Assembly (NCBI GenBank): GCA_938074335.1
Contig: CALJEL010000023.1
Location: 1,554 to 65,553 of the forward strand
Length of the DNA stretch: 64,000 nucleotides
From: an uncultured bacterium
GTDB lineage: Bacteria > Nitrospirota > Thermodesulfovibrionia > Thermodesulfovibrionales > CALJEL01
Direction of reading: 5' to 3'
Below the pieces are notes generated by a model. That model did not search any database, was not told where the DNA came from, and saw only the letters and a list, made by a program, of their open reading frames with translations. Positions 6,091 through 37,232 of the stretch are shown piece after piece. The position numbers were made by a program, and so were the translations under genes. Position 1 is the first letter of the stretch. Every line of letters starts with the position of its first letter.

Positions 6091-6122
6091 TATATTAACA
6101 CAACTTACAATAACAGTCCATT

Positions 6123-6942: not shown

Positions 6943-6958
6943 GAAAATTTTTTAAAAA

Positions 6959-6988: not shown

Positions 6989-6998
6989 AATCAGGGTC

Positions 6999-7007
6999 TG
7001 CTATAAT
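6999..7007 (+). promoter_or_regulatory. Extended -10 element TGCTATAAT, 6 nt upstream of the ATG at 7014 (leaderless-type arrangement)
   Basis: TGnTATAAT is followed by ttcctt and then ATG. There is no Shine-Dalgarno sequence. Confidence 0.45.
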
Positions 7008-7013
7008 TTCCTT

Positions 7014-15997: not shown

Positions 15998-16009
15998 CGT
16001 GGAGGAAAG

Positions 16010-16972: not shown

Positions 16973-17046
16973 TTATTTTTCAGAAAACGAGGAATATAAG
17001 GTATCGTGCTTTTGATTAAAATAATTGAGAAGATAGGAGGCTGCTG

Positions 17047-18078
17047 ATGTCCCCTTTCCTCCGCTCACTCCCCATGTGGCTTCTGTTTTTTTTGTTCGGT
17101 TGTGCTCCTTCCTTTACCATTTCTCGAATTGATACAACCGCCTCAGGCGGGATTTTATGGCCGGGAGAGCCAGAAAAACCAAGGATACGGTATTTATGGA
17201 GTTTACAACAGGTGAACTATATTGAAGGTAAAAGTATTAAAGACATTATTCTGGGTTATGATAATCCTTATGAACCGAGGGAGTCACCTATCCTGCTGAG
17301 ACCACAAGGAGTATATGTTGATCAGAAAAGATATTATATAGCAGACCCGGGTGCTGGAAGGGTTACGGTAATCGATAGAAAAAATATGAAGACCTTTCAA
17401 ATTATTTATGCTGGTGCAGAAGAGCTTCAGTATCCGATAAGTGTAGTTTCTGATAAAGATGGTTATATATATATATCAGATCCTGAATTAAGGAGGGTAA
17501 TAAAGTATAGGTTTGATGGTAACTTTATAGCATATTTTAAAGGAGAATTCTTAAGACCCTCCGGGCTTGCTATTGACAGATTGCGAGATATTATATATGT
17601 AACTGATACCCTTTCTCATAAAATTTATATATACAACTCCTCTGGAGAGAGGCTTGGCGAGATTGGAAGGCGTGGAGAAGGGGATGGTGAATTCAATTAT
17701 CCAGGTTACCTTTTTGTTGACCGTAATGGCAATCTCTATGTGAGTGATTCTCTTAATTTCAGGATACAGATATTTGGTCCTGATGGGAAATTTATAAAGA
17801 AATTCGGTGAACCAGGTGATGCCTATCATACCCTTGAAAAACCAAAGGGAGTAGCAGTTGACACAGAGGGACATATCTATGTGGTTGATGCTGGAAAAGA
17901 TATGGTGAAGATATTTGACAGGGATGGAAGGCTATTATTATTCTTTGGTGAGAAGGGGCATGAGTATGGAAAATTTTATCTTCCAGCAGGTATATTTATT
18001 GATATAGAGAATATTATCTATGTGGCTGATACAATCAACATGAGAATCCAGGCATTTCAATTTCTTGGAGGTGATTAA
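17047..18078 (+). CDS. NHL-repeat six-bladed beta-propeller lipoprotein
   Basis: GGAGG lies 7 nt before the ATG, and the lipobox is FLFG-C. Six NHL blades (YYIADPGAGRVTVID, IYISDPELRRVIKY, IYVTDTLSHKIYIY, LYVSDSLNFRIQIF, IYVVDAGKDMVKIFD, IYVADTINMRIQAF). Confidence 0.85.
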   Translation: MSPFLRSLPMWLLFFLFGCAPSFTISRIDTTASGGILWPGEPEKPRIRYLWSLQQVNYIEGKSIKDIILGYDNPYEPRESPILLRPQGVYVDQKRYYIADPGAGRVTVIDRKNMKTFQIIYAGAEELQYPISVVSDKDGYIYISDPELRRVIKYRFDGNFIAYFKGEFLRPSGLAIDRLRDIIYVTDTLSHKIYIYNSSGERLGEIGRRGEGDGEFNYPGYLFVDRNGNLYVSDSLNFRIQIFGPDGKFIKKFGEPGDAYHTLEKPKGVAVDTEGHIYVVDAGKDMVKIFDRDGRLLLFFGEKGHEYGKFYLPAGIFIDIENIIYVADTINMRIQAFQFLGGD

Positions 18079-18852
18079 ATGGATATAAAAAGAATAGGGG
18101 TTATCCCTATTTTTCTTCTCTCAATTTTAACATTAACCTTTGCTCAGGGCCCTGGCAATTTAACAGCACCTGGTAATAAACATAACCTTTCGTCAACTCA
18201 GACAGGTACCACAATACGGGCTATAAGTGAAACCCAGATATGCGTTTTTTGTCATACACCTCACAGGGCAACGGTGGCACCTCTCTGGAACAGGAGTCTT
18301 TCAACAGCAACTTACACAATGCCAACAAGGACAACCACACAACTTACTACCCCGCTTAATCCACCAGATGGAGATTCAAGGTTGTGTTTGAGCTGTCATG
18401 ATGGCACAATTCCAGTAGGACAGGTCCAGAACCTCTGGGGCCAGCAGGCAAACATAGCAATGAGTGGAAGTTTGTGCCCAGGACCCAACTGCTTTGGTAC
18501 TGATCTCAGTGGTCACCATCTCATATCTATTGAATATAATACCCAGCTTGCTATTGACAAGGCAGCTCAGTGCCCAGGTGTTAGCTACAGGTTAAGAAAT
18601 CCATTACCTCTTCCTCCTCTTTTACAGAAAACAGAAAGTGTCTATCCCTGTGATTATAACGCAAACCCAAATGGTTGCAGGGATCCAAATAATCCTCATT
18701 ATGGCGTTCAGTGCACATCCTGTCATGACCCCCATTATGATCCGACACCAGGTGTAACAAAGTTCTTAAGATACTCATCTGGTCAACAGGGCAACTGGCC
18801 ATGGAATAATTACGATACCCTCTGTCTGCAATGTCATGAGGCATGCCCGTAG
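18079..18852 (+). CDS. Secreted tetrahaem c-type cytochrome (paralogue 3 of 4)
   Basis: It has a signal peptide and four CXXCH motifs (CVFCH, CLSCH, CTSCH, CLQCH), plus the KHNLS and APLWNR motifs. It starts 1 nt after the NHL gene stop. Confidence 0.88.
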   Translation: MDIKRIGVIPIFLLSILTLTFAQGPGNLTAPGNKHNLSSTQTGTTIRAISETQICVFCHTPHRATVAPLWNRSLSTATYTMPTRTTTQLTTPLNPPDGDSRLCLSCHDGTIPVGQVQNLWGQQANIAMSGSLCPGPNCFGTDLSGHHLISIEYNTQLAIDKAAQCPGVSYRLRNPLPLPPLLQKTESVYPCDYNANPNGCRDPNNPHYGVQCTSCHDPHYDPTPGVTKFLRYSSGQQGNWPWNNYDTLCLQCHEACP

Positions 18853-18867
18853 GAGGTCAATAAGGTA

Positions 18868-19926
18868 ATGGCAGATATAAGGTTTAACATGAGAAAAGTT
18901 ATACTGGTTATCTTTTTTTTAGGATTGGCAACTGCGCTTTTTGCAGTAGAACCATCTCATCTTGATAAAATGAAGAACCCAGCAGGCTGTTCTGTATGCC
19001 ACACAGGTCATGGTATAAAGGGGAGTCCTACTTTGAGGTTTGATAAAAAGGAAATCTGTTTTGCCTGTCACAGCTCAAAAGGTAATCTTCCACCACAATT
19101 CAGGGCAAAGACTGACATGCTTTCGGTCTTTCAGAAAAGATACAGGCATCCTGTGATGGAAACCTCTCAGTATCACAATTCCTTTGAAGAACTGCCGGAG
19201 AAGGACATCTCAATACCAAGACATGTTGCCTGTCAGGACTGCCACAGGGTTCATGAATCCACTCCTCAGAAACCCTTGAGGAGGGTAAAAGGATATTCTG
19301 CCACGAAGGTCAGGAAGAAAGAGGCTGATGAAGAATATGAGGTCTGTTATCTTTGTCATGCAGACAGTGTGAATCGCCCACCACAGAGAAAGGATATCGC
19401 AGACCTCATGGATAGTCTGAATCCTTCTTATCATCCTGTTGAGGCAAGAGGGAAAAATGGAAGGGTCCCGAGTCTTATACCACCCTTGAATTCAAATAGC
19501 AAGATCCTCTGCACAGACTGTCATGGAAATAATGATCCCTTTGGTCCAAAAGGACCCCATGGTTCAGATTTTGAATATATCCTCAAGGCAAGGTATGAGA
19601 TGCGGGAAGGTCCTGAGTCCTATGATTCCTATGAATTGTGTTATAGCTGTCATGAGAGGCAGTCAATTATTGGAAATCAGAGTTTTCAAAAACATAAAGA
19701 GCATATAGTTTATCAACATATACCCTGCTCTGCCTGTCATGACAGTCATGGCTCAAAGATTAATCAACATCTTATTGATTTTAATCACCTATTTGTACTA
19801 CCCTTCCCATCACCTTCATATATTCCTTCTCCTCAAGGAAGACCGATCTGTTATCTCAGGTGCCATGTAGCGGGCAGGGATGTGGAGCATAATACACAAT
19901 TTTATAATGAAAGGAGATGGCCATGA
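18868..19926 (+). CDS. Secreted multihaem c-type cytochrome (7 CXXCH plus one C-x3-CH)
   Basis: It has a signal/anchor helix. CXXCH motifs are CSVCH, CFACH, CQDCH, CYLCH, CTDCH, CYSCH and CSACH, and CYLRCH lies near the C-terminus. Confidence 0.88.
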   Translation: MADIRFNMRKVILVIFFLGLATALFAVEPSHLDKMKNPAGCSVCHTGHGIKGSPTLRFDKKEICFACHSSKGNLPPQFRAKTDMLSVFQKRYRHPVMETSQYHNSFEELPEKDISIPRHVACQDCHRVHESTPQKPLRRVKGYSATKVRKKEADEEYEVCYLCHADSVNRPPQRKDIADLMDSLNPSYHPVEARGKNGRVPSLIPPLNSNSKILCTDCHGNNDPFGPKGPHGSDFEYILKARYEMREGPESYDSYELCYSCHERQSIIGNQSFQKHKEHIVYQHIPCSACHDSHGSKINQHLIDFNHLFVLPFPSPSYIPSPQGRPICYLRCHVAGRDVEHNTQFYNERRWP

Positions 19927-19935
19927 AATGGATTA

Positions 19936-19951
19936 TGGCACGGAAATTGCT
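19936..19951 (+). promoter_or_regulatory. Sigma54-type -24/-12 promoter TGGCACGGAAATTGCT
   Basis: It is a near-perfect match to TGGCAC-N5-TTGCW. It lies 10 nt after the upstream stop and about 57 nt before the ATG at 20008. Confidence 0.65.
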
Positions 19952-20007
19952 TTTTTATAAACAGGATCATTATATAAAGGCCAGGAGGATTTTTACAGGA
20001 GGCTGAA

Positions 20008-20790
20008 ATGCTTTTAAAAACAAGGCTTTTTGTATTATGCCTTATTACAGGGTGTGCGTTATTTCTCACACTATATGTGCAAAAATCCACAGCAGGGGTT
20101 GCAGGTGGAAAGCATGACCTTTCTATTTTTGGTGGGTCTAATTTTGGAGGTGGCACAGAGGAGATTTGTGTATTCTGCCATACACCTCACAGGGCAAATA
20201 CTACTCAGAGATACACTACAAATCCAAATAATCAGGTTTCAGGAGCCAATATACAGGGACAATTCCTCTGGAACAGACCTTTATCTGCTAATACCTTTCT
20301 ACCTTATACAAGTGACACTTATACCTTTAAGGGTAATGAGCCCCAGCCTGGGTTGAACTCCCTCCTTTGCCTCAGCTGCCATGATGGAATAGGTGCAACG
20401 AATGTCCTTCTGAACATCCCAGGAGATTGGGACCCAAGCTGGTTTTCTACTAATACCAATCAATTTGGTGATTTCAGTATCAATGATCCAAATATAGGAC
20501 CACTTAATATAGGTGAGGCCACTTGTACAGGTGATAACTGCACTGGTGGAGTAGACTTAAGGAATGACCACCCTATTGGCTTTGATTATGATACTGCCCA
20601 GAGTAGTGACACTGGTATCAAACCTCGTACTTCCTTGCCCTTGATTCTTCAACAACGGCTTGCAATTTCAAGCAACAAAGTGGAATGCTCTACCTGCCAT
20701 GATCCTCATCTAACCAATTCAGGGGGAAATATGTTTCTTGTAAGACCCATGACTGGTAGCCAGCTCTGCCTTGATTGTCATAACAAATGA
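20008..20790 (+). CDS. Secreted tetrahaem c-type cytochrome (paralogue 4 of 4)
   Basis: AGGAGG lies 5 nt upstream. It has a signal peptide and four CXXCH motifs (CVFCH, CLSCH, CSTCH, CLDCH), plus KHDLS, FLWNR and DHPIG. Confidence 0.88.
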   Translation: MLLKTRLFVLCLITGCALFLTLYVQKSTAGVAGGKHDLSIFGGSNFGGGTEEICVFCHTPHRANTTQRYTTNPNNQVSGANIQGQFLWNRPLSANTFLPYTSDTYTFKGNEPQPGLNSLLCLSCHDGIGATNVLLNIPGDWDPSWFSTNTNQFGDFSINDPNIGPLNIGEATCTGDNCTGGVDLRNDHPIGFDYDTAQSSDTGIKPRTSLPLILQQRLAISSNKVECSTCHDPHLTNSGGNMFLVRPMTGSQLCLDCHNK

Positions 20791-20802
20791 GTGATTTTAC
20801 AC
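20791..20802. promoter_or_regulatory. GTGATTTTACAC, a palindrome-like 12-mer 86 bp upstream of the sigma54 -24 element
   Basis: It has the same GTGWA-N2-TWCAC architecture as 6123 and 6147. Its reverse complement GTGTAAAATCAC differs at one base from the 12-mer at 55234-55245. Confidence 0.3.
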
Positions 20803-20887
20803 ATCGCATGACAAAATATGTCAGTTTATTAAGGGTAAAATAGTTAAAATAATATTTAATTTCAATAAGTTATGAGGTATATTTTGG

Positions 20888-20903
20888 TGGCAAGGATTTT
20901 GCT
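20888..20903 (+). promoter_or_regulatory. Sigma54-type -24/-12 promoter TGGCAAGGATTTTGCT
   Basis: GG-N10-GC spacing. It lies 37 nt before the ATG at 20940, which has a GGAGGAG Shine-Dalgarno. Confidence 0.6.
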
Positions 20904-20939
20904 ATGTAATTTTTAGAATAGACCTTAAATGGAGGAGTT

Positions 20940-23615
20940 ATGAGTAAGACAAAATGGATATGCGCTATTATTACATTGGTATATATCTTTGCTCTTTCCA
21001 GTGCCCATGCAGCAGTAGCACCTGAGATTACCCGATTGCTTACACTTCAGACCTCTCTGTTTTCAACAGAGATTACCGCAGACAATAATGGCAATATCTA
21101 TATAGCTGATGTTACGCAGGGGGTCATAAGGATTTATAACTTTAAAGGTGCCCTTTTAAAGACCTTTAAACTTGATTTTAAGCCCACCTGTCTTTCTGTC
21201 TCTCCTTCTGGTTATCTTTATATAGGAGGCAAAGGCAGGATAGATATCTACTCAGGCTCTATCTTTGTAAACTCCTATAAAGGTATTGTGGAAAGGCCAC
21301 TTTCTATAGCCTTTTTGAATGGAAAGACCTATATAGCGGATGGCTACTGGGTAAAGGTCTTTGATTCATCCATGAATAAGATATCAGAATTCGGTGGTTA
21401 TGCTGGCAGCGATAATATCCAGAGGAATGGAAGATTCACAGACCTGAAGGAGATAGCTGTTGATTATGCGAATTCTCTATTATTTGTCCTTGACAGGGGT
21501 GCCATAGCCAACGAAGGTAATTATGGTTCAACCTATGTGTGGAGGGTTCAGGTATTTGATGAGAATGGAAATTTTGTCAGAAGCTTTTCAAATTATGGTT
21601 TTGGTGTGGAGGGGAAGGTTGGCTCTGCCTCTTCAATTGCTGTTGATAAGGAGGCACGGGTATATGTGGCAGATAACCAGCAGAATATAATAGTTGTTTA
21701 TGATTCCTATGGAACTTATCTTAAGACCATCTATGATAATCAAAATCCCATATATAATCCCACCGGGCTTTACTACCATAGCGACAGATTGTATGCAGCA
21801 TCAGGCCTGGCAAAGGCGGCTTATGTCTTTGGAATAGACCTTTATGGTCTCCTGAGGGTAGAGCCCCTTGGCCTTGAGTTTAGCTCTCAGGGAGGCAATA
21901 CTGTCTCAGGAACATTAAACATCTTCAATGATGGAAAGGGAGACCTTAATTTTATAGCCTCAGCCTCAGAACCATGGATCAGCCTTTCATCCTCTGCAGG
22001 TGTGGTGGCAACAGGTTCATCTGTGCTTATAAACGTAATGATAAATTCTTCTGGTCTTTCCACTGGCACCTACAGTGGTACAATAGAGATAACCTCTAAT
22101 GGTGGCTCCGAGACCATTCCTGTAACACTTCATGTGCTGGCACCACCAGTACTTACAGTCTCACCATCAAGTTTTGACCTTATAAAGAAGAAGGGTTCAC
22201 CTTCTGACCCATTGATAGTGAATATAACCCTTTCCAATGACCTCTCAGGTTCTATGGCATGGACAGCAAGTTCTGATTCTTCATGGTTAAAAATAATCCC
22301 TTCTACAGGGCCATCTAACAGTACTGTATCTGCTAATATAATTGTTGATACAAATATTGACCCTGGTAAATACACAGGCATCATAACAGTCTCTGCACAG
22401 GGAGCAGAGGGTAGTCCTGCAACCATAACAGTAAACCTTGAGATAAGGACAAGCCGAAAGATCGCTGTAAATGCCAATATAGAGACAGCTGCCTTTACAA
22501 TATCTGGACCTGCATCCTATGAGGGTTCAGGCTTAAGTTATGTAATAGAAGATGTGCCCTCAGGCACTTATACTGTACATTTTAAGCCTGTAAAAGGTTA
22601 TAAGACACCTTCTCCACAGAGTGGAACACTTTTAGATGAAGGCGAGCTTTTATTTAGTGGTGAATACCAGCCACTGGGCGATAGGCTTCATATCATAGCA
22701 AGCCATGGACCTGGCAATAAGGATAATATGGAGATAAGGATATTCAATGGAGATGGTCAACTCCTTAAGACCATAGCACCTGTTAAACCATACAGGTATG
22801 GGGCGACAACAGCAACAGGTGATATAAACGGAGACGGTATAAATGAGCTCATTATTGGTACCGGTCCAGGGGCAAAGGTCCCACCTCTTGTTACTGTAAT
22901 TGATATTGATGGAAAAGTAATTGGAGAATTCAGGCCTTTCAGCGGGCTTGGTTATGGGGTTGAGGTAGCAGCAGCAGATCTGGATGGCGATGGTTCAGCA
23001 GAGATAATCACTGCAAAGACAAGTAAATTTGCAGGAACACCCCTTGTGGACCTCAAGGTCTTTAAATTCATGGATGGTCGGTTCATTAATAAGGGCGTAA
23101 GACTCGAACACAAAGGTGCAAATGGTATAAGGATAACAGCTGCTGACCTTAATAATGATGGTATTCCCGAGGTCCTTGTTATTCCGGCAAGTGGAGAGGC
23201 TCCTGTATACATATACCAGATAGATACATCTCAGCAAGAATGGACAGCCTCTTTAATACTCCAGTACACTGGTTGTGATAACTCAGGTGGTTCAAATCTC
23301 ACAGCAGGCGATATAGATGCAGATGGCATACCTGAGATAATTCTTTCCTGCCATTATGATTCAGGAACCCTGGTAAGAATCATTAATGCCTCAGGTAATC
23401 CTATAAAAGAATTTTCCACAGGCTCTTCACTTAAGGATTTCATAGCAGCAGGTGATCTTGACAATGATGGAATAGCAGAGATAATCCTTGGAGATGGGCC
23501 TGCAGCTCATAAAAGGACTGTAAAGATATTCAACCCTGAAGGCGGGCTGCTGAGAAGCTTTAATGCCTTTGAAGATTCCTTTGGCATAAGGATATCAACA
23601 GGTAGGTTTGAATAA
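20940..23615 (+). CDS. Secreted 891-aa multidomain protein: NHL-like propeller, two Ig-like domains, then FG-GAP/VCBS-type repeats
   Basis: Signal peptide ends ..SSAHA. The N-terminal region has NHL-like blades (IYIADVTQGVIRIY, VYVADNQQNIIVVYD). Two Ig/BACON-like segments span about 21850-22460. Five or six repeats of the form D-x-[ND]-x-DG-x-x-E-[IL]-[IL] (DINGDGINELII, DLDGDGSAEIIT, DLNNDGIPEVLV, DIDADGIPEIIL, DLDNDGIAEIIL) span about 22800-23560. Confidence 0.75.
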   Translation: MSKTKWICAIITLVYIFALSSAHAAVAPEITRLLTLQTSLFSTEITADNNGNIYIADVTQGVIRIYNFKGALLKTFKLDFKPTCLSVSPSGYLYIGGKGRIDIYSGSIFVNSYKGIVERPLSIAFLNGKTYIADGYWVKVFDSSMNKISEFGGYAGSDNIQRNGRFTDLKEIAVDYANSLLFVLDRGAIANEGNYGSTYVWRVQVFDENGNFVRSFSNYGFGVEGKVGSASSIAVDKEARVYVADNQQNIIVVYDSYGTYLKTIYDNQNPIYNPTGLYYHSDRLYAASGLAKAAYVFGIDLYGLLRVEPLGLEFSSQGGNTVSGTLNIFNDGKGDLNFIASASEPWISLSSSAGVVATGSSVLINVMINSSGLSTGTYSGTIEITSNGGSETIPVTLHVLAPPVLTVSPSSFDLIKKKGSPSDPLIVNITLSNDLSGSMAWTASSDSSWLKIIPSTGPSNSTVSANIIVDTNIDPGKYTGIITVSAQGAEGSPATITVNLEIRTSRKIAVNANIETAAFTISGPASYEGSGLSYVIEDVPSGTYTVHFKPVKGYKTPSPQSGTLLDEGELLFSGEYQPLGDRLHIIASHGPGNKDNMEIRIFNGDGQLLKTIAPVKPYRYGATTATGDINGDGINELIIGTGPGAKVPPLVTVIDIDGKVIGEFRPFSGLGYGVEVAAADLDGDGSAEIITAKTSKFAGTPLVDLKVFKFMDGRFINKGVRLEHKGANGIRITAADLNNDGIPEVLVIPASGEAPVYIYQIDTSQQEWTASLILQYTGCDNSGGSNLTAGDIDADGIPEIILSCHYDSGTLVRIINASGNPIKEFSTGSSLKDFIAAGDLDNDGIAEIILGDGPAAHKRTVKIFNPEGGLLRSFNAFEDSFGIRISTGRFE

Positions 23616-23623: not shown

Positions 23624-26600
23624 ATGGGTATGATAAGAATAATTAAATTAATACTTCTTACAGGACTTATCCTTATCCCTGTGGTTGGCTATGGCAGACT
23701 TGACCAGCCACACCATCCGCAGGGCACAAGTTCTGTAAACTGTGGTAACTGTCACTGGACAGCTGGTGGCACACCACCTTGGTCTGGCCAGACAAAGCCC
23801 ACTGGCTGGTCTGATGCAGACTGGACCATCAATAATCAGAGGTGTTGGGTATGCCATAATACAAATTCAAGCAAACCTGCCAGCATTCATTCTGCCTCAA
23901 CCACCTCTACCCAGTACTGGTCAGGTCAGTGGACTACAGAATGTGTATCCTGTCATAACCCCCATAATCAGAGACAATGGGTAGCTTGGAGGACAGACCC
24001 TGATTTATATCTTGCCACAGGTGCCTTTACTGTTACAGGAGTAGGTACTTATGATTCAGTAAACAATCGCACACCCATAACACTTTCATCACCCCTTACT
24101 GATGAGTATCAGGACAGATACTTTATGCCTGACAAAAATTATCCCTTTTTCTACAAGATCATCTCCTCTACCTTGAATCAGAATATCTTCTATGTGCGCG
24201 GTAAGGTCAATACTACCTATGTAAGAGGTAATGGATTTGCAATAATCTACGGTATGAGCATCAAAGACTACATCAGCTATACAAACCCTGGTGGGCAAAA
24301 GATCACTGCCTCTATTAAGCTCTTCAGACCCGGGCTAAATGTGCAGGGTGGATTTATTGATTCAAATAATTATTCAACAAGCCTCTGTCAGGCATGCCAT
24401 ACTCAGACAGCCAACTTTACCCAGTCTAACCCAAATCATGGAACAACTATTACCGAGGGTCAGTCCTGCCTTAATCCTGCCTCTGGTTGCCATGCTGAGC
24501 ATCCTCAGGGATTCCAGATAGCAGGTGCAAAGTGTGGTGTATGCCATGGTGTTCCACCGAGTTATTATAATTCTCCAGCAGACCATAACCTTGTAAAGAA
24601 GATAAAGATAGACGGTACAGAATACGACACCAATACAGGTGTCACTACCCCTGGTGCCCATGTAAAGCACAGCCAGACAAGTGCCATGACCTATTCAAGG
24701 CGCCAGGTTGGCTGTATGGAATGTCATAATGCAGGCATGCAGCCAGCAGAATCAGACCCTACCATTGGTGACTACAAGATTCAGATTGGTATAAATGCAA
24801 CCACTGTTGGATATACTGGCGGTAATTATGATGGAAGGACCTCCCTTGCAAATGGCTTTACCTATCAGGCAGTATCTCCCACGACCGTCACGACAAATAA
24901 TACACTTGTATGTTCAAATATCTACTGCCATGGCTCAACCATTGGTGGAACAGTTAATCCATCCTGGACAGGTACTGTTTCCTGTGGAGACTGCCATAAG
25001 GCAACTGCAGCAGCTCCACCGACCCTTGGCAGCCATGTAAAGCATGCTGGTAATACCTCAACCATGCAGTCTGCTATTACATGCTCAACATGCCATGGCC
25101 ATAGTGGAACAGCCTCAGCTGTCCATGTAGATGGCTCTGCACAATGGAATCTCAATACAGGTGATCCAAGGATAGGCTCACAGGCAACCTATCGTGGCTT
25201 AAACTCTGGCTCAGTAAATCCTGTGCCTTCAAGCACCTATGGTCAGTGTTCAAATCTTTACTGTCACAGTAATGCCAGCCCCCTTGGCGGGACTGCCAGC
25301 TATAAGACAGTCACATGGGGCGGTGCTGCTATGGCATGTAACTCCTGTCACAGTGGTGCTGGTGATGCCTCACCAACATGGTCAGTGTCTCATACAAAGC
25401 ATGTAAACACATACACGCAGTATAACTGTAATCACTGCCATAGCACCGTTGCATCAAATAATACAACCATCTCTGATAAAACCCTGCATGTAAATGCTAC
25501 CAAGGAAATTTCCTTTAATTCCTTTAATCCATCAGCATTACCCTATGATAGTGCGAATCACCAGTGCTCAAATCTCTACTGTCACAGCAATGCAAGTCCC
25601 CTTGGAGGAACAAATGTCTATGTAACAGCCACATGGAATACAAGCCTTGACTGCGGTGGTTGCCATAAAAAGGCAGATACCACAGCAAATATGACAGCAG
25701 GTGGCACCATAGGTCTCATGAGCTCTGCGCATGTAATACATGTGGCATTAGACCAGTATGGAGACCCTTCAAGGTCAGCAAAGCAGATTACATGCCAGAG
25801 CTGCCACAATACAGTTGCCTCTGGCAATAGCACAATAATCAATTATGCCAATCATGTAAATGCTATAAAGAATGTAGGCTTTGATACCTCCTGGATTGGA
25901 GGTAGCCCATCCTATTCAGGTTCACCCAATTATCAATGCTCAAGTGTTTACTGTCACAGTGATGGTCAACCCCTTGGCCAGGGCTCTCCTGTCTATAAGA
26001 CAGTTGCCTGGAATGCCGGTGCACTAACATGTAATGACTGTCATGCATCAAATCCAAATACAAATGCCCATTTAAAACATACAAATGCATCAACATACAA
26101 CATGGGTTGTGTAGAATGCCATCAGTCTGTTGTTTCAAACAATACAACCATATCAAGCAAGGTCCTTCATGTGAATAAGATTAAGGATGTTGCCTGGAAG
26201 ACAGGTGGTTATAATGCTGATGGTGGTCCCTATTCATCACCTAATTGTTCAAACATATACTGTCATAGTCAGGGTACTGAGAACAGTGCTCCCTATAGTT
26301 CACCCAATGTAACAGCAGCATGGAATACAACCCTTACCTGTAAGGGCTGCCATGACTTTAATGCAGCAGCCACACCAGACATAATGTCAACAGGTGCCCA
26401 TGCAAAGCATGTAAATAATGCCTCTGTAATGGGTGTAAACTTTACATGCAGTGAATGCCATAACCAGACAGTCTCATCTGGTGATAGCCCTGTAACAAAT
26501 TTTGCATTACATGTAAACAAACAGGTCAATATAGCCTTTAATACAACTCTTAATCCAGGTGCCTCCTATGCCGGCTCTCCAGCACCAATGCAAAAGGCAC

Positions 26601-29600
26601 CAGGCTCAGCCTATGGGCAGTGCACAAATCTTTACTGCCACTCAAGTGGTAATATTGCAAGGTCTGCAACACCTACATATAAAACTCCCTCATGGAGCGA
26701 TACCTTTACAGACCATTGTGACCAGTGTCATGGAGATGGTGCAGGAAGGAGCCATCCAGTCTATGCCTCTGGCACACCTGGTTCTAATACTGCAAACAGC
26801 CATATCCAGCATGTGGAGAATGCCAGTATAGGCTGTGAGGTATGCCATTATACAACCACCACTGATGGGATAAACATAGTCTCAGGTGGAGGTCAGCATC
26901 TTAATAAACAGGAGGATGTAAGCTTTACTGCTACAATTGGTGGTACATACAATGCAGATACCTCCTGCTCTTCCACATACTGTCATGGAACCTCCTCACC
27001 CCAGTGGGGTGCCACAGGTGTCCTTAACTGTGGTAGCTGTCACCAGAGCATGGGTGCAGGTGGAACAGCCTCATATAATGGTGCTCATCTCAAGCACTCG
27101 GGCATTGCCTCAGGTGAGTATAACTTCTCCTGTGAGCAGTGCCACAGCGCAAATGGAACTGTACATGCTGGTGGCCCTGTTAATGCATCAAAGCAGGCAG
27201 CAGAAATAGTATTTACAAATGGCACAGGCACAGGTGCCTATCGTGGTTCTCAACAGACAAATTATAAATACTATACCATGTACACAAACCCTTACACAGG
27301 CACAGGTGTAACACCTTCAGCCTATGTATCTGGAACCACTGTCCAGTCAGACTCAGTAAACCCAGCCCTCAAGTGGACATCTGAGGGAACATGTAACAAT
27401 ATCTGGTGTCACAGTAATGCAGCACCTTATGGTGGGACAAACACCTATGTATCAGTTCAGTGGGGTGCTACTGTTAACTGTGGCTCCTGCCATGCAGCAA
27501 TTGGTAATTCTGCTCCCCATCCAAAACATGTGACCACCTATCCCTATACCTGTAATCATTGCCACAGTGCTACTGCCTCAGACAATACAACTATATCCAG
27601 TAAGGCAGAGCATGTGGATGGTCAGAAGGATATAGTATTTAATACCTGGGTAGGTCCATCTCCCACATGGAATGCTGGTGCTCACCAGTGCTCAAATACC
27701 TACTGCCACAGTGCAGGAACAAGCTTTACATCTCCAACCCATGCAGGTCTCCTCTGGTCCGGGACAATGAGCTGTACTTCCTGTCACGGAAACCCTCCTT
27801 CTTACGCAAGCGGTTCACCAAAGGCAAACAGCCATGTTGAGCATGTAAACAATAATGGTGCCTCATGCTATAACTGTCATGCTGCTACAGTTAACAGTGG
27901 CGGTGCAATATCCAATTATGCAAACCATGTAAATAAAGCCTATGAAGTCGTTGGAGGAGGCACCTTTGCCGGTAACCCTGTTAGCTTTTCCTATACCTAT
28001 GGCAATCCATCCACATGTTCAAATATATCCTGTCATGGTGGGACAGGTGCTACATGGGGTGCCGCAACACCTTGCCAGGACTGCCATATGCTTAACCAGT
28101 CTGATGTAGATGACTTTACATGGCTTAATGGTACAAAGGCAGTAATATCCCAGACAGAGTGGTTAAGCACAGGTCATGGAAGGACCACAGGTACATATCC
28201 TGTCTCTGGAAATACAGCAGCCAATTTTGAGGCTGCCTCACCTCAGCAGTGCTTCTACTGCCATGACAATGCAGTTCTTCATGGCACATCAAATTACTTC
28301 AGACTAAGGAACATAAATGACCCTCAGTGGGGTATGAATGGAGTATGTAAGGACTGCCATGCCACTGGTTCAACCGGTATTACTGTAAATGGTGTCCTAA
28401 GGAATTCCACAAAGAAGATTGACTCAAGGCATTATGGTACGAAGCATTCCACTTCAAACAATGGTGGTCAGTTCTGCTGGGATTGCCATGACCCTCATGG
28501 AGACAGCAATATCTATATGATTCATGCCTCTGTGGCAAAGACCTCAAGCTCAACTGACGGAAAACCAACCACAACAGCTGTTACTGTATTTACAAATAAT
28601 AACACTGGCACAGACTATGCAAAGAGCACAGCACCTTATAATGGAATATGTAATGTCTGCCATACCTCAACGAATCATTATACCTCAAGCTCAGGTGATG
28701 GTCATAATTCAGGCACAAGGTGTACCTCCTGCCATCCTCATACAGGGCCTGACTATAACTCTGCCTTCAGCCCAAGTGGTGGAGAATCTGCAGGTGGTTT
28801 AGCCTGTAGAGATTGTCACATTGACCTCTATAACAGGATGCACGACAGCACACTCTCCGGCGGTAAGCTCATGGTTTACAAGCACTATATGAACAATGAC
28901 AGTGCCACTTCTTATCCAACATCCGCAACCCCTGGTGGCTCCGCTGATACAAACAGGAAATGCCTCATGTGCCATGTTGACCATGACATATTCAGGCCAG
29001 ATCTGAATCCAAATGCCACAAGGTCAAAGAACCTGAGGACCAGCATATCTATAACACCTACCACTTCATCAGGATTCTCAGAATCAGACTTTGATGCCAC
29101 AACTGGTGGAATATGTCTGAGCTGTCATGTGAATCAACAGACAAAGGCATTCACTACACCAAATAATGTCTCAACAGTTCCACCTGTGCCATATTCAGGC
29201 CTTACCCTTGCACAGGCTACTCAGGTGGTAAAGAACTCCACACATAACTATGCCGTCACAAGTGGTGCCTTCGGTGATACATCTACATTCAAGGCAGTAT
29301 GTCTTAAGTGCCACAATGATACCATGAACCCGAAGAGCTCAATGAATGGCCAGAAGGCAGAGCCTAAATTCGGGCTCCATCAGTCTGGAAGGAACTCCTT
29401 CTTTGCAGTAATGGGTTCTGGTAATTTCAAGGACTTTGTAAGTGGTCAGATAACAGCGGTTTCAGGTACAACCATTACAGTGAATCAGGACCTTACAAAG
29501 GACTATAAAGGTTTTGCCCTTGTTGTTACAAAGGCAAATGGCACACAGGCACAGAGGGCAATCATTACAGCCACAGATACAAGCCTTGAGCAGGTAACTG

Positions 29601-32047
29601 TGGCTTCCTGGCCAAGCTTCACACCTTCAGTAAATGACTTCTTTGAGATCACAAAGGACATAACACCTATTGAAGAGGTATGCTTTAACTGCCATAGCCA
29701 GGGTGCAAATTCTGGTGGCACAGGTCTTGACAAGCCAAATAATTATAAACTAACTGATGGAATGGACTTCTACAATGCAGAGCCCATGCAGAACAGGCTC
29801 GAGCAGCTCTTCAACCTCTTTAACGCAGATTCTGGAAGGCTCAAGGCTGATGCAGGAAGGAATGCCACATCAGTTACAGTATGCACAAATAACACAGTTA
29901 CAGCAAATGAGTTTGTAAATTATTTCTTCAGGTCAGGGTCACAGGTAAAGAAGGTCTCTGCCAATACCGCTACTAATGCTGATACCACCTGCAGTACAAA
30001 CTATGGACTTGCAAACTCCTATACACTAACTATCTCTGCACTCTCAGCAGCACTCTCAGCAGGCACCTCCTATAATGTCGCAAAGCCAGCAGCCCATCCA
30101 CTTGACAACCTCGGTCTTCACAAACCTGATGAGCATCTCACCGCAACAGCTGGCTGGAATTTGGGTGACAGTGGCTCCTGCACAGCTGTAACTACCAATA
30201 CATGTACAGATTCCACCAAGAGGTGGGTTGGTAGCTTTGCAGGTAAGACCATAACATTTACAAGTGGAGCCTGTGCTGGTCAGACCTTCACAATATCCTC
30301 TAATACAGCCAATACCATAACCCTTTCCCCTACACCATCCTGCACACTTTCTGTTGGTGACACCTATTACATAGGCTCAAGACATGTATCTTGCTCAGAC
30401 TGCCATAATACCCATGCTGCACAGGTCAATCCATCAGGAAAAGTAAGCTCTGTATCAAATACACCTCCATCAGCCATTTTTATAAAGGATACAGATAAGA
30501 CCTATGATAAGACAGGCTGGCAAAGTGATAAATGGAAGGGCTATCTCATAATGATCAGGAAATCTTCTGGCTTCAGGCAGATAAGGCAGATAACAAGCTC
30601 TGTAACAGATGCCACTGGTACAACATACTATGTAGGTCTTATATGGAATACTACGAATCCCCCCGCTGCTGGTGATGAATACGAGGTATTCAAACAGGAT
30701 GGCTCAGCAGGCTCAGGACAGAAGGGTGTATGGGGTGTAAGTGTAGGACACCAACCACCAAATACTACAAATACCAATGATAACTATCGTCGTGGAGCTG
30801 ATTACACCTATACAAAGGTATGGGATGCACAGTATGAAAGAGACCTCTGCATGAAGTGCCATAGCTATTATGGATTCCTCTCTGCACCACCCACAACACC
30901 ATCGCTCTTTGGTACAGTTAATACTATTATGCCTGCAAGCGACATAGCAGAGGAGGCAAACCCTGATAACCTTGCCCACCATGCCATATTTGCAAGGGGC
31001 AAGAACCAGCCAATTACAGCCACAGGTTCAACAACCGCTACAGGCAGACCTTATGGAGCAAATCCAAACTGGCCAAAATACACCACCGGAACAATCTCCA
31101 TTACAACTGCTGGTACAGCAACACTTGGCGGTGGTGGCTCCTTACCACAGAATGTGCTTCCTGGCTGGATGGTCTATGTGGGCACTACAAACTATCCCAC
31201 AGCTGGCTCTGCCAATACACCAAGGAATTGGTTTGAGATAATAGAGATCTATAGCTCCACAAGCTTTAAGGTAACACCTGCACCATCTGCAGCACTCACT
31301 AACCAGACCTATGCAATAACAGCAGGCCTTGGGAATACCTTTGTACCACCCTATGGACCGTGGTCAATACTTAAGTGTAAGGACTGCCATGGCTCTACAC
31401 TCAGTGACCCGCTTGGTCCCCATGCATCTGTTAATAAATTCCTTGTAAGGTCTATAGAGCCTATAATTGGCTATGAATTCTTTAATGGAAGCTCAGTGGT
31501 GATAAATACAGAGATACAGAATTCAGGAACAGCCTATAACAACAACTACTTCTGCTTTAACTGCCACAGAAGGACTGTCTATGGAGACCAGGGCTTATTA
31601 AATCCGGGAAATGATAATTATGCAAGGGTAAGGCATGGAAATGCGGATCTTGGTGGATTATATAGGACTGATTCCCGTGTTGCTGACCCAACCTGGGTGG
31701 GCACTGGTATACATTGCAATCAGTGCCATGCAGGCTATCGTGGAACAGGTACTGCTGGCTCAGAGAGGGTTGGTGGTATCCATGGAACAAACTTCTATTC
31801 AAAGAATGCACAGGGAACCTCAAGGGCAGCCTGGACAACAAAGCAGGGTAAGAGGTTCCTTAATGGTGCAAGCTGGGCAATAGGTTCAGGTGATGGTAAT
31901 GCTAGTGGTGGGGTTGCAAGACCTACTACCACAACATCAGGTGGCTGCTATGTGAGAAAGACAGCTGACAGCATGAATAGGTGCACTCAGGGTCATTCAG
32001 GTGATAGGGCTTATGGTGGTGCTACCTATGACTATGATAACCCATAA
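23624..32047 (+). CDS. Giant secreted multihaem c-type cytochrome (2,807 aa; about 40 CXXCH plus 10 C-x4-CH)
   Basis: It is a single uninterrupted ORF. AAGGGGG precedes the start, and the signal peptide is MGMIRIIKLILLTGLILIPVVGYG. My manual motif count from the translation gives 40 CXXCH, 10 C-x4-CH (CSNLYCH-type) and one CLNPASGCH. A strong terminator follows. Confidence 0.9.
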   Translation: MGMIRIIKLILLTGLILIPVVGYGRLDQPHHPQGTSSVNCGNCHWTAGGTPPWSGQTKPTGWSDADWTINNQRCWVCHNTNSSKPASIHSASTTSTQYWSGQWTTECVSCHNPHNQRQWVAWRTDPDLYLATGAFTVTGVGTYDSVNNRTPITLSSPLTDEYQDRYFMPDKNYPFFYKIISSTLNQNIFYVRGKVNTTYVRGNGFAIIYGMSIKDYISYTNPGGQKITASIKLFRPGLNVQGGFIDSNNYSTSLCQACHTQTANFTQSNPNHGTTITEGQSCLNPASGCHAEHPQGFQIAGAKCGVCHGVPPSYYNSPADHNLVKKIKIDGTEYDTNTGVTTPGAHVKHSQTSAMTYSRRQVGCMECHNAGMQPAESDPTIGDYKIQIGINATTVGYTGGNYDGRTSLANGFTYQAVSPTTVTTNNTLVCSNIYCHGSTIGGTVNPSWTGTVSCGDCHKATAAAPPTLGSHVKHAGNTSTMQSAITCSTCHGHSGTASAVHVDGSAQWNLNTGDPRIGSQATYRGLNSGSVNPVPSSTYGQCSNLYCHSNASPLGGTASYKTVTWGGAAMACNSCHSGAGDASPTWSVSHTKHVNTYTQYNCNHCHSTVASNNTTISDKTLHVNATKEISFNSFNPSALPYDSANHQCSNLYCHSNASPLGGTNVYVTATWNTSLDCGGCHKKADTTANMTAGGTIGLMSSAHVIHVALDQYGDPSRSAKQITCQSCHNTVASGNSTIINYANHVNAIKNVGFDTSWIGGSPSYSGSPNYQCSSVYCHSDGQPLGQGSPVYKTVAWNAGALTCNDCHASNPNTNAHLKHTNASTYNMGCVECHQSVVSNNTTISSKVLHVNKIKDVAWKTGGYNADGGPYSSPNCSNIYCHSQGTENSAPYSSPNVTAAWNTTLTCKGCHDFNAAATPDIMSTGAHAKHVNNASVMGVNFTCSECHNQTVSSGDSPVTNFALHVNKQVNIAFNTTLNPGASYAGSPAPMQKAPGSAYGQCTNLYCHSSGNIARSATPTYKTPSWSDTFTDHCDQCHGDGAGRSHPVYASGTPGSNTANSHIQHVENASIGCEVCHYTTTTDGINIVSGGGQHLNKQEDVSFTATIGGTYNADTSCSSTYCHGTSSPQWGATGVLNCGSCHQSMGAGGTASYNGAHLKHSGIASGEYNFSCEQCHSANGTVHAGGPVNASKQAAEIVFTNGTGTGAYRGSQQTNYKYYTMYTNPYTGTGVTPSAYVSGTTVQSDSVNPALKWTSEGTCNNIWCHSNAAPYGGTNTYVSVQWGATVNCGSCHAAIGNSAPHPKHVTTYPYTCNHCHSATASDNTTISSKAEHVDGQKDIVFNTWVGPSPTWNAGAHQCSNTYCHSAGTSFTSPTHAGLLWSGTMSCTSCHGNPPSYASGSPKANSHVEHVNNNGASCYNCHAATVNSGGAISNYANHVNKAYEVVGGGTFAGNPVSFSYTYGNPSTCSNISCHGGTGATWGAATPCQDCHMLNQSDVDDFTWLNGTKAVISQTEWLSTGHGRTTGTYPVSGNTAANFEAASPQQCFYCHDNAVLHGTSNYFRLRNINDPQWGMNGVCKDCHATGSTGITVNGVLRNSTKKIDSRHYGTKHSTSNNGGQFCWDCHDPHGDSNIYMIHASVAKTSSSTDGKPTTTAVTVFTNNNTGTDYAKSTAPYNGICNVCHTSTNHYTSSSGDGHNSGTRCTSCHPHTGPDYNSAFSPSGGESAGGLACRDCHIDLYNRMHDSTLSGGKLMVYKHYMNNDSATSYPTSATPGGSADTNRKCLMCHVDHDIFRPDLNPNATRSKNLRTSISITPTTSSGFSESDFDATTGGICLSCHVNQQTKAFTTPNNVSTVPPVPYSGLTLAQATQVVKNSTHNYAVTSGAFGDTSTFKAVCLKCHNDTMNPKSSMNGQKAEPKFGLHQSGRNSFFAVMGSGNFKDFVSGQITAVSGTTITVNQDLTKDYKGFALVVTKANGTQAQRAIITATDTSLEQVTVASWPSFTPSVNDFFEITKDITPIEEVCFNCHSQGANSGGTGLDKPNNYKLTDGMDFYNAEPMQNRLEQLFNLFNADSGRLKADAGRNATSVTVCTNNTVTANEFVNYFFRSGSQVKKVSANTATNADTTCSTNYGLANSYTLTISALSAALSAGTSYNVAKPAAHPLDNLGLHKPDEHLTATAGWNLGDSGSCTAVTTNTCTDSTKRWVGSFAGKTITFTSGACAGQTFTISSNTANTITLSPTPSCTLSVGDTYYIGSRHVSCSDCHNTHAAQVNPSGKVSSVSNTPPSAIFIKDTDKTYDKTGWQSDKWKGYLIMIRKSSGFRQIRQITSSVTDATGTTYYVGLIWNTTNPPAAGDEYEVFKQDGSAGSGQKGVWGVSVGHQPPNTTNTNDNYRRGADYTYTKVWDAQYERDLCMKCHSYYGFLSAPPTTPSLFGTVNTIMPASDIAEEANPDNLAHHAIFARGKNQPITATGSTTATGRPYGANPNWPKYTTGTISITTAGTATLGGGGSLPQNVLPGWMVYVGTTNYPTAGSANTPRNWFEIIEIYSSTSFKVTPAPSAALTNQTYAITAGLGNTFVPPYGPWSILKCKDCHGSTLSDPLGPHASVNKFLVRSIEPIIGYEFFNGSSVVINTEIQNSGTAYNNNYFCFNCHRRTVYGDQGLLNPGNDNYARVRHGNADLGGLYRTDSRVADPTWVGTGIHCNQCHAGYRGTGTAGSERVGGIHGTNFYSKNAQGTSRAAWTTKQGKRFLNGASWAIGSGDGNASGGVARPTTTTSGGCYVRKTADSMNRCTQGHSGDRAYGGATYDYDNP
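24911..28087 (+). repeat. Internal tandem array of about 10 modules of about 100 aa: C-x4-CH ... CXXCH ... H-x-[KH]-H ... CXXCH ... HVN
   Basis: The first module starts at CSNIYCH (24911). The last C-x4-CH is CSNISCH (28016), followed by CQDCH (28073-28087). The pattern matches what I recall as the Geobacter CxxxxCH...CXXCH domain family. Confidence 0.75.
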
Positions 32048-35274: not shown

Positions 35275-37232
35275 AGAGCTGGCAGGCAATAGTCCTTATT
35301 TTTATCACTGTATTCATTGCCTATTCAAATAGTTTTATGGTTCCCTTTCAGTGGGATGATTACAGCTACATTGTAAATAATATAAGGGTTAAGGATTCAG
35401 GAGAACTTTTTAGGAACTGGAATGGCTCAAGGTTCATGGGATTTTTCAGCTTCTGGCTTAATTTTATCACTGCAGGTCTCAGACCTGCTCCATACCACCT
35501 TGTAAATCTTACAATACATATTCTGAATTCCTTTCTTGTCTTCTTTTTAATAAGGCTTCTTCTCAGGCTCCATTTCAAGGATACCTACAGGGAATATGAG
35601 GACTGGATAGCCCTCTCAGCAGCATTGCTTTTTGGACTTCATCCTGTAAACACCATGGCAGTAACATACATAAGCCAGAGGTTTACAATACTCTCAACAC
35701 TCTTCTATCTCCTTTCTGTTTTCCTATATCTTAAGGCAAGGCTTCAATCCCGAAACACTCCTTTATATCTCCTGTCCATCCTTTCAGCCATACTTGCTAT
35801 GAAGACAAAGGAGATTGCCTTTACCCTTCCTTTTATAATATTCCTCCTTGAATTTCTCCACTTTAGGTCAGAAAGGCACTGGAGATATCTTATCCCCCTC
35901 TTTCTGACCCTTTTTATCATTCCCTTAAGCAGGATAGATGCGCTCTGGACGATAAAGGGGCAGACCCTTCTTCAAAAGACTTTAGAAACATCAGATATCC
36001 CGAGGCATATCTATCTATTTACAGAGTTCAGGGTTTTGTTAACCTATGTAAGACTCCTGTTTTTTCCTGTTAATCTTAACATTGATTATGACTATCCACT
36101 CTCAAGGAGCCTCTTTGAGACAGATACCTTTTTTGCAATGATTGTCCATATTACATTGATTGTTTCTGCCATTATTCTTATCAAGAGGTCAGTTCATGGA
36201 AGGCTTGTTGGTACAGGGATTCTCTGGTATTACATTACACTTTCAGTGGAATCAAGCATAATACCCATCACAGATGTTATATTTGAACACAGGCTCTATC
36301 TTCCCTTTACAGGTTTTATACTCGTTCTTGCAGGTGCAGTCCTGTGGTTCGTACCTCTGAAAAGATATGGTAAGGCACTTATAATCCTTATCTCTATTAT
36401 TGTAATTGTCCTTGGCACAGCTACATTTTTAAGGAATTCTGTCTGGTTATCCCAGAGAAGTATCTGGGAAGATGCTGTAGAAAAATCTCCAGGCAAGGTC
36501 AGGACAAGGCTAAATTATGCCCTTACACTTCCTCCTGAAGAGGCTATAAAAGAACTTGAGTGGGTCTTATCAAAAGACCCCTGGAATCTTTCTGCACTTA
36601 ACAAACTTGCAAGGATATTTATGGAGATGGGCCGTATCTCTGAGGCAGAGGAGATATTAAAAAAGTCAGGGCAAATAGTCTCAGAAAAAGAGCTCTTTTC
36701 CTATAGGGCAGACATCTGCCTTGAGAAGAAGGACTACATCTGTGCTATTGATAACTTAAAGAGGCTTATTGAGCTTGAGCCAGGCAGTTCAAGGCATTAT
36801 TTCAGGCTTGGCCTTGCCTGTGAATACATGGCAAGGTTTGATGAGGCAGAGGAGGCTTACAGAAAGGCAATTGCCCTTGACCCATCCAATGCCGATGCCA
36901 TTAATAATCTTGGTAATCTTATGGCTGAAAAGGGTAATCTCAAGGAATCCCTCAAGCTTCTTAAAAAGGCAAGGGCCCTTATGCCAGAAAGTCCAAGCAT
37001 ACTTCTGAATCTTGGCATAACCTATGCACAGCTTGGAGATTATAATGAAGCCCTCTGGCATATTGACAGGGCATTAAAGCTCAAACCAGACATGGCCGAG
37101 GCATGGTTTAATAAAGGACTTATCCTCTTACAGGCAGGGATGAAGGATGAGGGATGCATTGCCATAATGAAATCACTTGAGATATCACCAGGCTTTGAAA
37201 AGGCAAAGGAGGTCTTTAAGAACTGTAAATGA
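35271..37232 (+). CDS. TMTC-like GT-C glycosyltransferase fused to TPR domain (full-length form)
   Basis: The N-terminal motif is PFQWDDYSYIVNN. The polytopic region ends at VIFEHRLYLP, followed by a TM helix, then LRNSVWLSQRSIWEDAVEKSPGKVR and about 7 TPRs. The start overlaps the upstream stop as ATGA. Confidence 0.7.
   Translation: MKSWQAIVLIFITVFIAYSNSFMVPFQWDDYSYIVNNIRVKDSGELFRNWNGSRFMGFFSFWLNFITAGLRPAPYHLVNLTIHILNSFLVFFLIRLLLRLHFKDTYREYEDWIALSAALLFGLHPVNTMAVTYISQRFTILSTLFYLLSVFLYLKARLQSRNTPLYLLSILSAILAMKTKEIAFTLPFIIFLLEFLHFRSERHWRYLIPLFLTLFIIPLSRIDALWTIKGQTLLQKTLETSDIPRHIYLFTEFRVLLTYVRLLFFPVNLNIDYDYPLSRSLFETDTFFAMIVHITLIVSAIILIKRSVHGRLVGTGILWYYITLSVESSIIPITDVIFEHRLYLPFTGFILVLAGAVLWFVPLKRYGKALIILISIIVIVLGTATFLRNSVWLSQRSIWEDAVEKSPGKVRTRLNYALTLPPEEAIKELEWVLSKDPWNLSALNKLARIFMEMGRISEAEEILKKSGQIVSEKELFSYRADICLEKKDYICAIDNLKRLIELEPGSSRHYFRLGLACEYMARFDEAEEAYRKAIALDPSNADAINNLGNLMAEKGNLKESLKLLKKARALMPESPSILLNLGITYAQLGDYNEALWHIDRALKLKPDMAEAWFNKGLILLQAGMKDEGCIAIMKSLEISPGFEKAKEVFKNCK

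Follow-up and report, generated by a model that had tools for sequence, protein, structure and literature searches.

The window analysed here is a stretch of 64,000 nucleotides from an uncultured bacterium of the Thermodesulfovibrionales (Nitrospirota; contig CALJEL010000023.1). On its forward strand, a single open reading frame (ORF) at 23624-32047 encodes a multihaem c-type cytochrome of 2807 amino acids that is predicted to be secreted. The tandem repeats within this giant cytochrome are nothing out of the ordinary: they represent a haem-binding domain that already has a name, CxxxxCH/CxxCH, and that occurs in long arrays in thousands of giant bacterial cytochromes, which presumably serve as electron wires. 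We read the array as this domain in nine complete copies, each of which would bind three bis-histidine haems, and a truncated tenth; together they would form a wire relaying or storing electrons. The probability of this reading is roughly three in four.

The module array

The translation contains 40 CXXCH and 10 CX4CH motifs (regular expression scan), and 100 of its 110 cysteines lie inside haem motifs. No CXXCK is present in the translated 2807 residues. The motif counts are not due to chance, since 2000 shuffled versions of the protein contained on average only 0.2 CX4CH (maximum 3) and 0.19 CXXCH. Each of the ten CX4CH motifs is followed by a CXXCH that starts 19-32 residues from the CX4CH start. 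A MAFFT alignment of the ten modules yielded the common consensus CSN.YCHs..W..C..CH..H.KHv..C..CH..HVN. Modules 1-9 each comprise one CX4CH, two CXXCH, one HxxH and one downstream histidine, arranged as CX4CH..W..CXXCH..HxxH..CXXCH..H[VL][ND]. All modules are encoded on the plus strand; nucleotide and residue numbers after the first motif give the start of CX4CH.

24893 to 25228, plus strand: module 1 (amino acids 424-535), CSNIYCH (24911, residue 430), CGDCH, HVKH, CSTCH, HVD
25229 to 25546, plus strand: module 2 (amino acids 536-641), CSNLYCH (25247, residue 542), CNSCH, HTKH, CNHCH, HVN
25547 to 25918, plus strand: module 3 (amino acids 642-765), CSNLYCH (25565, residue 648), CGGCH, HVIH, CQSCH, HVN
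25919 to 26227, plus strand: module 4 (amino acids 766-868; target of AlphaFold modelling), CSSVYCH (25937, residue 772), CNDCH, HLKH, CVECH, HVN
26228 to 26602, plus strand: module 5 (amino acids 869-993), CSNIYCH (26246, residue 875), CKGCH, HAKH, CSECH, HVN
26603 to 26947, plus strand: module 6 (amino acids 994-1108), CTNLYCH (26621, residue 1000), CDQCH, HIQH, CEVCH, HLN
26948 to 27373, plus strand: module 7 (amino acids 1109-1250), a variant subtype, CSSTYCH (26966, residue 1115), CGSCH, HLKH, CEQCH; TVHAGGPVN replaces HVN and is followed by a 75-residue insert
27374 to 27670, plus strand: module 8 (amino acids 1251-1349), CNNIWCH (27392, residue 1257), CGSCH, HPKH, CNHCH, HVD
27671 to 27997, plus strand: module 9 (amino acids 1350-1458), CSNTYCH (27689, residue 1356), CTSCH, HVEH, CYNCH, HVN
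27998 to 28123, plus strand: module 10, degenerate and terminal, only CSNISCH (28016, residue 1465) and CQDCH (28073-28087); without HxxH and HVN, it passes into a conserved core

An earlier note on this DNA, drawn from the letters alone, had placed the repeats between CSNIYCH at 24911 and a CQDCH ending at 28087; these coordinates are exact, and all example strings quoted in it are present. Its count of about ten three-haem modules holds for the nine complete units, while the tenth retains CX4CH and a single CXXCH.

The identity between modules ranges from 33 to 55%. No long tandem repeat was found in the DNA of the array, where similarities are confined to 30-53 nucleotides at the CX4CH codons, and a recent tandem duplication at the DNA level or a misassembly was thereby ruled out. 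From both observations it follows that the array is old and no assembly artefact. That its periodicity might reflect composition, assembly or chance is an explanation to which we give next to no weight: no supporting point was found, and besides the shuffling result and the lack of long DNA repeats, an identical, unnamed protein exists in NCBI and ENA (P0001; its annotated start is 23630, two codons downstream of the start used here), and two orthologues with 79-80% identity keep all ten modules.

The periodicity of the array is not as strict as had been claimed: from one CX4CH to the next, the distance is 99-142 residues. The modules have also differentiated into subtypes that are closer between organisms than between neighbours. 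Modules 5-8 aligned to the modules of the same number in the distant protein P0009 (scores 263-293), whereas their best paralogues within the same protein scored 133-273 (133-202 for modules 5-7). Because these modules match their distant counterparts better, the array is described as a heteropolymer: its subtypes are differentiated, and a super-repeat of four modules underlies it.

The subtypes of modules 5-8 (26228-27670) keep their order across the distant proteins compared (P0009, P0005 and P0004). This conserved order points to a four-module, 12-haem super-repeat as the unit of array growth. Near-identical recent duplications of such four-module blocks were observed in P0004 and P0007.

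Affiliation with the CxxxxCH/CxxCH family

NCBIfam TIGR01904 ('CxxxxCH/CxxCH domain c-type cytochrome', GSu_C4xC__C2xCH) matched ten stretches of the giant cytochrome with an E-value of 4.3e-66 (218.6 bits against a cutoff of 27), and Pfam PF09698 ('Geobacter CxxxxCH...CXXCH motif') matched eight stretches (84.2 bits against a cutoff of 21.7). Submitted singly, eight of nine modules scored above the PF09698 cutoff. Judged by its sequence, the protein shows those defining traits of the CxxxxCH/CxxCH family that were tested. The motif arrangement, regarded as unusual in the earlier note, defines this curated family, which has thousands of members with typically 8-59 copies.

In addition to three close copies, a word-indexed search through 5.8 billion proteins yielded 31 relatives at a greater distance. 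Beyond the orthologues, these comprise 30 giant proteins of 1627-4309 amino acids with PF09698 and one protein of 2688 amino acids without it (P0030). Several of the retrieved proteins, from Nitrospirae, Deltaproteobacteria, Geobacter sp. DSM 9736 and G. grbiciae, are already named 'CxxxxCH/CxxCH domain-containing protein'. In a set of 32 relatives, which leaves out P0001 and its copy P0035, each protein holds 2-20 CX4CH motifs, the median distance between them is 96-170 residues, and 197 of 325 consecutive CX4CH pairs enclose exactly two CXXCH at the expected spacing.

An alignment of 61 module segments from 30 proteins (A2) was turned into a module profile, which was searched against 1.84 billion representatives. 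At E ≤ 1e-3 it matched 5440 protein clusters, of which 1577 also passed E ≤ 1e-30. Of the 5440 matches, the best 150 are proteins of 981-5341 amino acids, and in each of them 8-59 stretches were matched. About ten modules are therefore a typical array length for the family. Among the GTDB species genomes, the nearest relative is encoded in a metagenome-assembled genome (MAG) of the Thermodesulfovibrionales (76-81% identity; L001, L002). Less closely related proteins were found in Nitrospirae JdFR-86, in many Geobacteraceae (Citrifermentans bremense, Geomonas, Geomesophilobacter), in Anaeromyxobacter, and in Acidobacteriota, Holophagales and Desulfobulbia. PF09698 routinely serves to mark multihaem cytochromes (bioRxiv 10.64898/2026.05.27.727921; 10.1101/2021.08.23.457424).

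The locus adds one member from the Thermodesulfovibrionales to a large, already named family of giant multihaem cytochromes, and very little hinges on it. The family itself still merits study. To our knowledge, no member of this family has a solved structure, a measured haem stoichiometry or a demonstrated function. If the wire model is true, no known single-chain haem wire would be longer than the proteins of the family. The locus may serve as a compact test case, with modules 2-4 being short and clean and a matching ResB/CcsA pair encoded nearby.

Haem sites and axial ligands

Invariant in alignment A2 are the CX4CH cysteines and histidine, the two CXXCH motifs and the first histidine of HxxH. 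The second histidine of HxxH, the histidine of HVN and the tryptophan after CX4CH are conserved in at least 90% of the segments, and a 26-row alignment of two modules (A1) agrees with this pattern. At least six histidines are present in each of modules 1-9, and exactly six in modules 3, 4, 5 and 7. No module is without its conserved histidine set, a check that covered the modules and not the other approximately 20 CXXCH sites. Three bis-histidine c-type sites need six histidines, and six are conserved, which argues that all three motifs bind haem. This stoichiometry is the strongest sequence-level argument for haem at CX4CH as well as at both CXXCH, and for HxxH and HVN as the source of the distal ligands.

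We propose that each module, about 100-140 amino acids in length, carries one covalently bound haem at its CX4CH and one at each of its two CXXCH, three in all. The histidine ending each motif would serve as proximal ligand, and the two histidines of HxxH together with that of H[VL][ND] would serve as distal ligands, giving low-spin bis-histidine haems. The modules in series would then line up about 27-30 haems, set close together, in an uninterrupted chain. Its length would be roughly 30-40 nm, judged by analogy with GSU1996 and the 27-haem models of PMC11492766. The chain may relay electrons or store them, and as part of the extracellular electron transfer gene cluster around its gene it would most plausibly do so outside the outer membrane. 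The earlier suggestions agree with this proposal as far as sequence analysis reaches: CX4CH as a genuine haem c attachment motif with three sites per module is consistent with the invariant residues and with three proximal and three distal histidines, the HxKH element as a source of distal ligands with its conservation over the 61 segments, and the 27-30 haems of the array probably form one wire-like stretch.

A CX4CH motif that lacks haem and acts as a disulfide, a metal site or a relic would leave dihaem modules and a gapped chain. In favour of this, haem occupancy in the family is not known from any direct evidence, CX4CH is far rarer than CXXCH, and the clustered ResB/CcsA genes could hint at a special maturation that might fail. 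However, the two cysteines and the histidine of CX4CH do not vary across the segments, a dihaem module would require only four conserved histidines rather than six, and curators label the domain as a c-type cytochrome. Moreover, the CX4CH sites of Desulfovibrio cytochrome c3 carry haem in solved structures, and the c3 profile aligns to the CX4CH element of the module. Modules without haem at CX4CH are hence considered very unlikely.

Relation to cytochromes c7 and c3

The whole protein matched PF14522 (cytochrome c7) with 114.2 bits (cutoff 24.8). Single units were submitted to Pfam in two registers, the c7 register (HxxH..CXXCH..HVN..CX4CH..CXXCH) and the module register of the earlier note. 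In the former, the 67-position c7 profile aligned end to end (3/5-66/67) in six of nine units with E-values between 5e-6 and 1.4e-3. In the latter, the profile again starts at HxxH-CXXCH and ends at position ~28 with similar bit scores, and in terms of these scores the c7 register is no better as a structural unit. In every module the c7 profile starts at HxxH-CXXCH, and nearly all of the score derives from this part. The HxxH-CXXCH half of the module thus resembles the N-terminal half of c7. An insert of 23-75 residues lies between HVN and CX4CH. Positions ~45-87 of the c3 profile (PF02085) align to the CX4CH..CXXCH element. Compared with an approximate PpcA sequence using hhalign, the module profile aligned over only 13 columns around one CXXCH.

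An AlphaFold2 model of a two-module segment, calculated from the 26-row alignment, reached a predicted local distance difference test (pLDDT) score of 54.5 and is too poor for use. The models with module 4 as target are of only moderate quality and yielded no fold match, GSU1996 included.

Several observations weigh against the array being a trihaem wire. Among the single units, only U9 exceeds the cutoff of PF14522 (26.7 bits) and only U6 that of PF02085 (23.1 against 22.9 bits), with all other units at 14-24 bits. The 1086-residue array has no match in the PDB at E ≤ 0.01 (phmmer). The module profile, searched against PDB sequences, retrieved weak generic multihaem matches only, namely UndA (5.7e-7) and 6qvm (1.8e-6), followed by NrfA (~3e-5), reaction-centre cytochromes and GSU1996 (3OV0, 0.016; 3OUE, 0.08). 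We know of no member of the CxxxxCH/CxxCH family for which an occupied CX4CH has been shown experimentally. Finally, the predicted location is argued from the signal peptide and the gene neighbours, and the candidate porin among these neighbours is unannotated and has only five homologues.

Regions outside the array

Apart from the array, the giant cytochrome was divided into the following parts.

23624 to 32047, plus strand: multihaem c-type cytochrome gene (ORF translation, motif scan, Pfam and NCBIfam matches)
23624 to 23695, plus strand: putative Sec-type signal peptide (MGMIRIIKLILLTGLILIPVVGYG) without lipobox cysteine, read by eye from the translation
23696 to 24892, plus strand: N-terminal region before the array with six CXXCH and CLNPASGCH at 24467-24493 (motif scan, alignment)
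28061 to 28903, plus strand: conserved post-array core, amino acids ~1480-1760, with eight CXXCH and DVDDF..SGHG..QFCWDCHDPHGD (ranges matched in relatives)
28904 to 32047, plus strand: C-terminal 1047 amino acids with eight widely spaced CXXCH and eight free cysteines (motif scan)

The sequence CLNPASGCH (amino acids 282-290) is a C-x6-CH element that takes two of the ten cysteines outside the CXXCH and CX4CH motifs. In an alignment of the N-terminal regions, the same column reads CXXCH in P0005, P0006, P0008, P0011 and P0030, CX3CH in P0007 and P0010, and CX6CH (CYANEAGCH) in P0004. The alignment suggests CX6CH as a probable further haem site, the 51st, whose spacer of six residues is unusual. 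The haem motifs listed in PMC11492766 do not include CX6CH. A site that alternates between CXXCH, CX3CH and CX6CH among relatives would be a useful probe of the spacer tolerance of haem lyases.

The post-array core, with the landmarks DVDDF..W..SGHG..CFYCHD..RLRN..QFCWDCHDPHGDSNIYM..NGICNVCH..GHNSGTRCTSCH, is the part of the protein that the largest number of distant relatives match, and many of the locus matches stop at residue 1732. Its identity is 51-63% in L024, L031 and L034, which are Actinomycetota, Geobacter and Acidobacteriia MAG loci. In Pfam, the core overlaps only partially with an MtrC/MtrF-like match (PF22113, amino acids 1383-1583), and it has no relative in the PDB by phmmer. 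It may represent a functional core that carries variable numbers of modules. The C-terminal 1047 amino acids matched no Pfam or NCBIfam family and no PDB entry, and phmmer searches of the N-terminal, core and C-terminal parts against the PDB gave nothing meaningful.

Gene neighbourhood and cellular location

The window encodes seven multihaem cytochromes with 86 haem motifs in total, and CX4CH is restricted to the giant protein. The features around its gene are listed below.

14102 to 23615, plus strand: co-oriented upstream genes (annotation searches, synteny with L004)
37229 to 38527, plus strand: ResB-like gene (PF05140, Pfam)
39184 to 39993, plus strand: CcsA/ResC gene (PF01578, Pfam), with a TPR gene between it and the ResB-like gene
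2004 to 3044: DmsE/MtrA-like cytochrome with 13 CXXCH, location assumed periplasmic
3227 to 4372: NHL propeller, a second NHL protein
6223 to 6942 and 7014 to 7649: two ORFs with four CXXCH each

The upstream genes encode, in this order, a protein of 631 amino acids, a SurA-like peptidyl-prolyl isomerase, an NHL propeller lipoprotein, three cytochromes with four, seven and four haem motifs, and an FG-GAP/BACON/NHL protein of 891 amino acids. The three cytochromes (18079-20790) have signal peptides and are assumed to be periplasmic. Downstream of the giant cytochrome, in the same orientation, follow a fused MFS/spermidine-synthase-like protein, several TPR proteins and the ResB-like and CcsA pair. 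The whole cluster is syntenic in the locus of Nitrospirae JdFR-86 (L004).

The ORF that heads the cluster (14102-15997, 631 amino acids) has a hydrophobic, signal-like N-terminus and a composition rich in Y, T, N, S and G that resembles beta-barrel proteins. It matched no Pfam or NCBIfam family, its five homologues among the 5.8 billion proteins are all unannotated, and a weak counterpart occupies the same position in L004. On these sequence features, it is a candidate for the outer membrane porin of a porin-cytochrome conduit. Overall, the gene context fits an extracellular electron transfer module, as far as location and function can be inferred from it.

A different role of the array, as an electron reservoir (capacitor) in the periplasm or at the cell surface, or as an arm that delivers electrons to a catalytic or substrate-binding, haem-poor C-terminal part of 1300 amino acids, is considered unlikely. 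In its favour, residues 1500-2807 contain sparse CXXCH, long haem-free stretches and the eight free cysteines; the part matched in most relatives is residues 1480-1732 and not the array; no secretion signal for the outer membrane or porin has been demonstrated; and the relative GSU1996 is periplasmic, being among the periplasmic cytochromes in PMC11492766. On the other hand, no enzyme family was matched anywhere in the protein, CXXCK is absent, and the histidine set of the modules is complete (with about 20 further CXXCH left unchecked). A rod of about 30 haems would furthermore be longer than the periplasm is wide (350 versus 170 Angstrom; an argument made in PMC11492766), and the composition of the cluster is like that of porin-cytochrome loci.

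The ResB-like and CcsA proteins, whose genes lie 5-8 kb downstream of that for the giant cytochrome, constitute a System II pair for cytochrome c biogenesis and probably mature the cytochromes of the cluster. Six relatives belonging to different phyla (L003, L004, L009, L013, L018 and L023) likewise have a CcsA gene downstream of the giant-cytochrome gene, whether or not a ResB could be detected. It is doubtful that this pair acts as a dedicated haem lyase for the CX4CH and the probable CX6CH sites, in combination with a single-chain wire of about 50 haems and more than 30 nm. In Wolinella, dedicated CcsA-type lyases serve CX15CH and CXXCK. Should both the dedicated lyase and the wire be real, a lineage of sulfate reducers (Thermodesulfovibrionales) would exchange electrons directly with minerals or partner cells. 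The linkage itself is not new, because ResB/ResC pairs beside multihaem cytochrome genes were noted in Geobacter in 2009 and were suggested to serve the cytochromes encoded nearby (PMC2700814).

The ORFs with four (18079-18852) and seven haem motifs (18868-19926) share the same frame and are separated by one stop codon and 15 nucleotides. MccSep/ExtKL is a read-through selenoprotein (PMC13510729), and 18079-19926 was considered as a single read-through selenoprotein like MccSep. This was rejected as the second ORF opens with its own signal peptide, and the two are probably separate genes.

Upstream of the main cluster, a second set of cytochrome and NHL genes was observed at 1968-7649. Further downstream, glycosyltransferase genes are located at 39994-40704 and 41999-42691, and the ORF at 43049-44488 has matches to B12-binding and radical SAM domains and is followed by three co-oriented ORFs of similar size (44469-45893, 45896-47026 and 47023-48429). 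A scan for transfer RNA genes, as a clue to a genomic island, found none.

Comparison with known systems

The named CxxxxCH/CxxCH cytochromes, for example WP_231934414.1 from Geobacter sp. DSM 9736 and P0023 from Geobacter grbiciae, share with the giant cytochrome the CX4CH..W..CXXCH arrangement in multiple tandem copies, the giant size (1600-4300 amino acids), the N-terminal signal sequence and, in many of them, the post-array core. In contrast, the host described here belongs to the Nitrospirota, the identity to these members is 30-32%, and the protein has its own long, haem-poor C-terminal extension. The filament-forming cytochromes OmcS, OmcE and OmcZ are built from small subunits of 4-8 haems instead of a single chain of 2807 amino acids. 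The module profile and phmmer found no PDB sequence match to these subunits, and by sequence the giant cytochrome is not one of their homologues. As in the porin-cytochrome conduits (Mtr/Pcc/Ext), genes for multihaem cytochromes with assumed periplasmic location are adjacent.

Both the idea of a haem wire and the counting of CXXXXCH as a haem site have already been published (PMC11492766). That study modelled long-wire cytochromes of Desulfuromonadia with AlphaFold, including a 27-haem protein of G. metallireducens of about 350 Angstrom as well as GSU2884/OmcA, OmcH and OmcG, with modules on flexible linkers, Fe-Fe distances below 15 Angstrom and a predicted extracellular location. The concept is the same as that proposed here, the hosts being Desulfobacterota, and the likeness is one of description and not of sequence comparison.

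Cytochrome c3 of Desulfovibrio (class III, PF02085) resembles the module in its CX4CH attachment beside CXXCH and in its bis-histidine coordination. However, c3 is one compact domain of about 110 amino acids with four haems and two CX4CH, whereas the array would have one CX4CH per three haems in a repeated unit. Similar to the giant cytochrome, the dodecahaem 'nanowire' GSU1996 of Geobacter sulfurreducens (PDB: 3OV0) is a single-chain polymer of tandem trihaem domains, four of the c7 type, and the order of HxxH followed by CXXCH in the modules matches the start of the c7 profile. GSU1996 contains four units of about 75-80 amino acids with one His/Met haem per domain, and its 12 haems span 12 nm. 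In our case, the 9-10 units measure 100-140 amino acids, each has one CX4CH site, and all three distal ligands are apparently histidines. By analogy, the giant cytochrome may work like a much longer trihaem polymer of the GSU1996 type with a c3-style CX4CH site.

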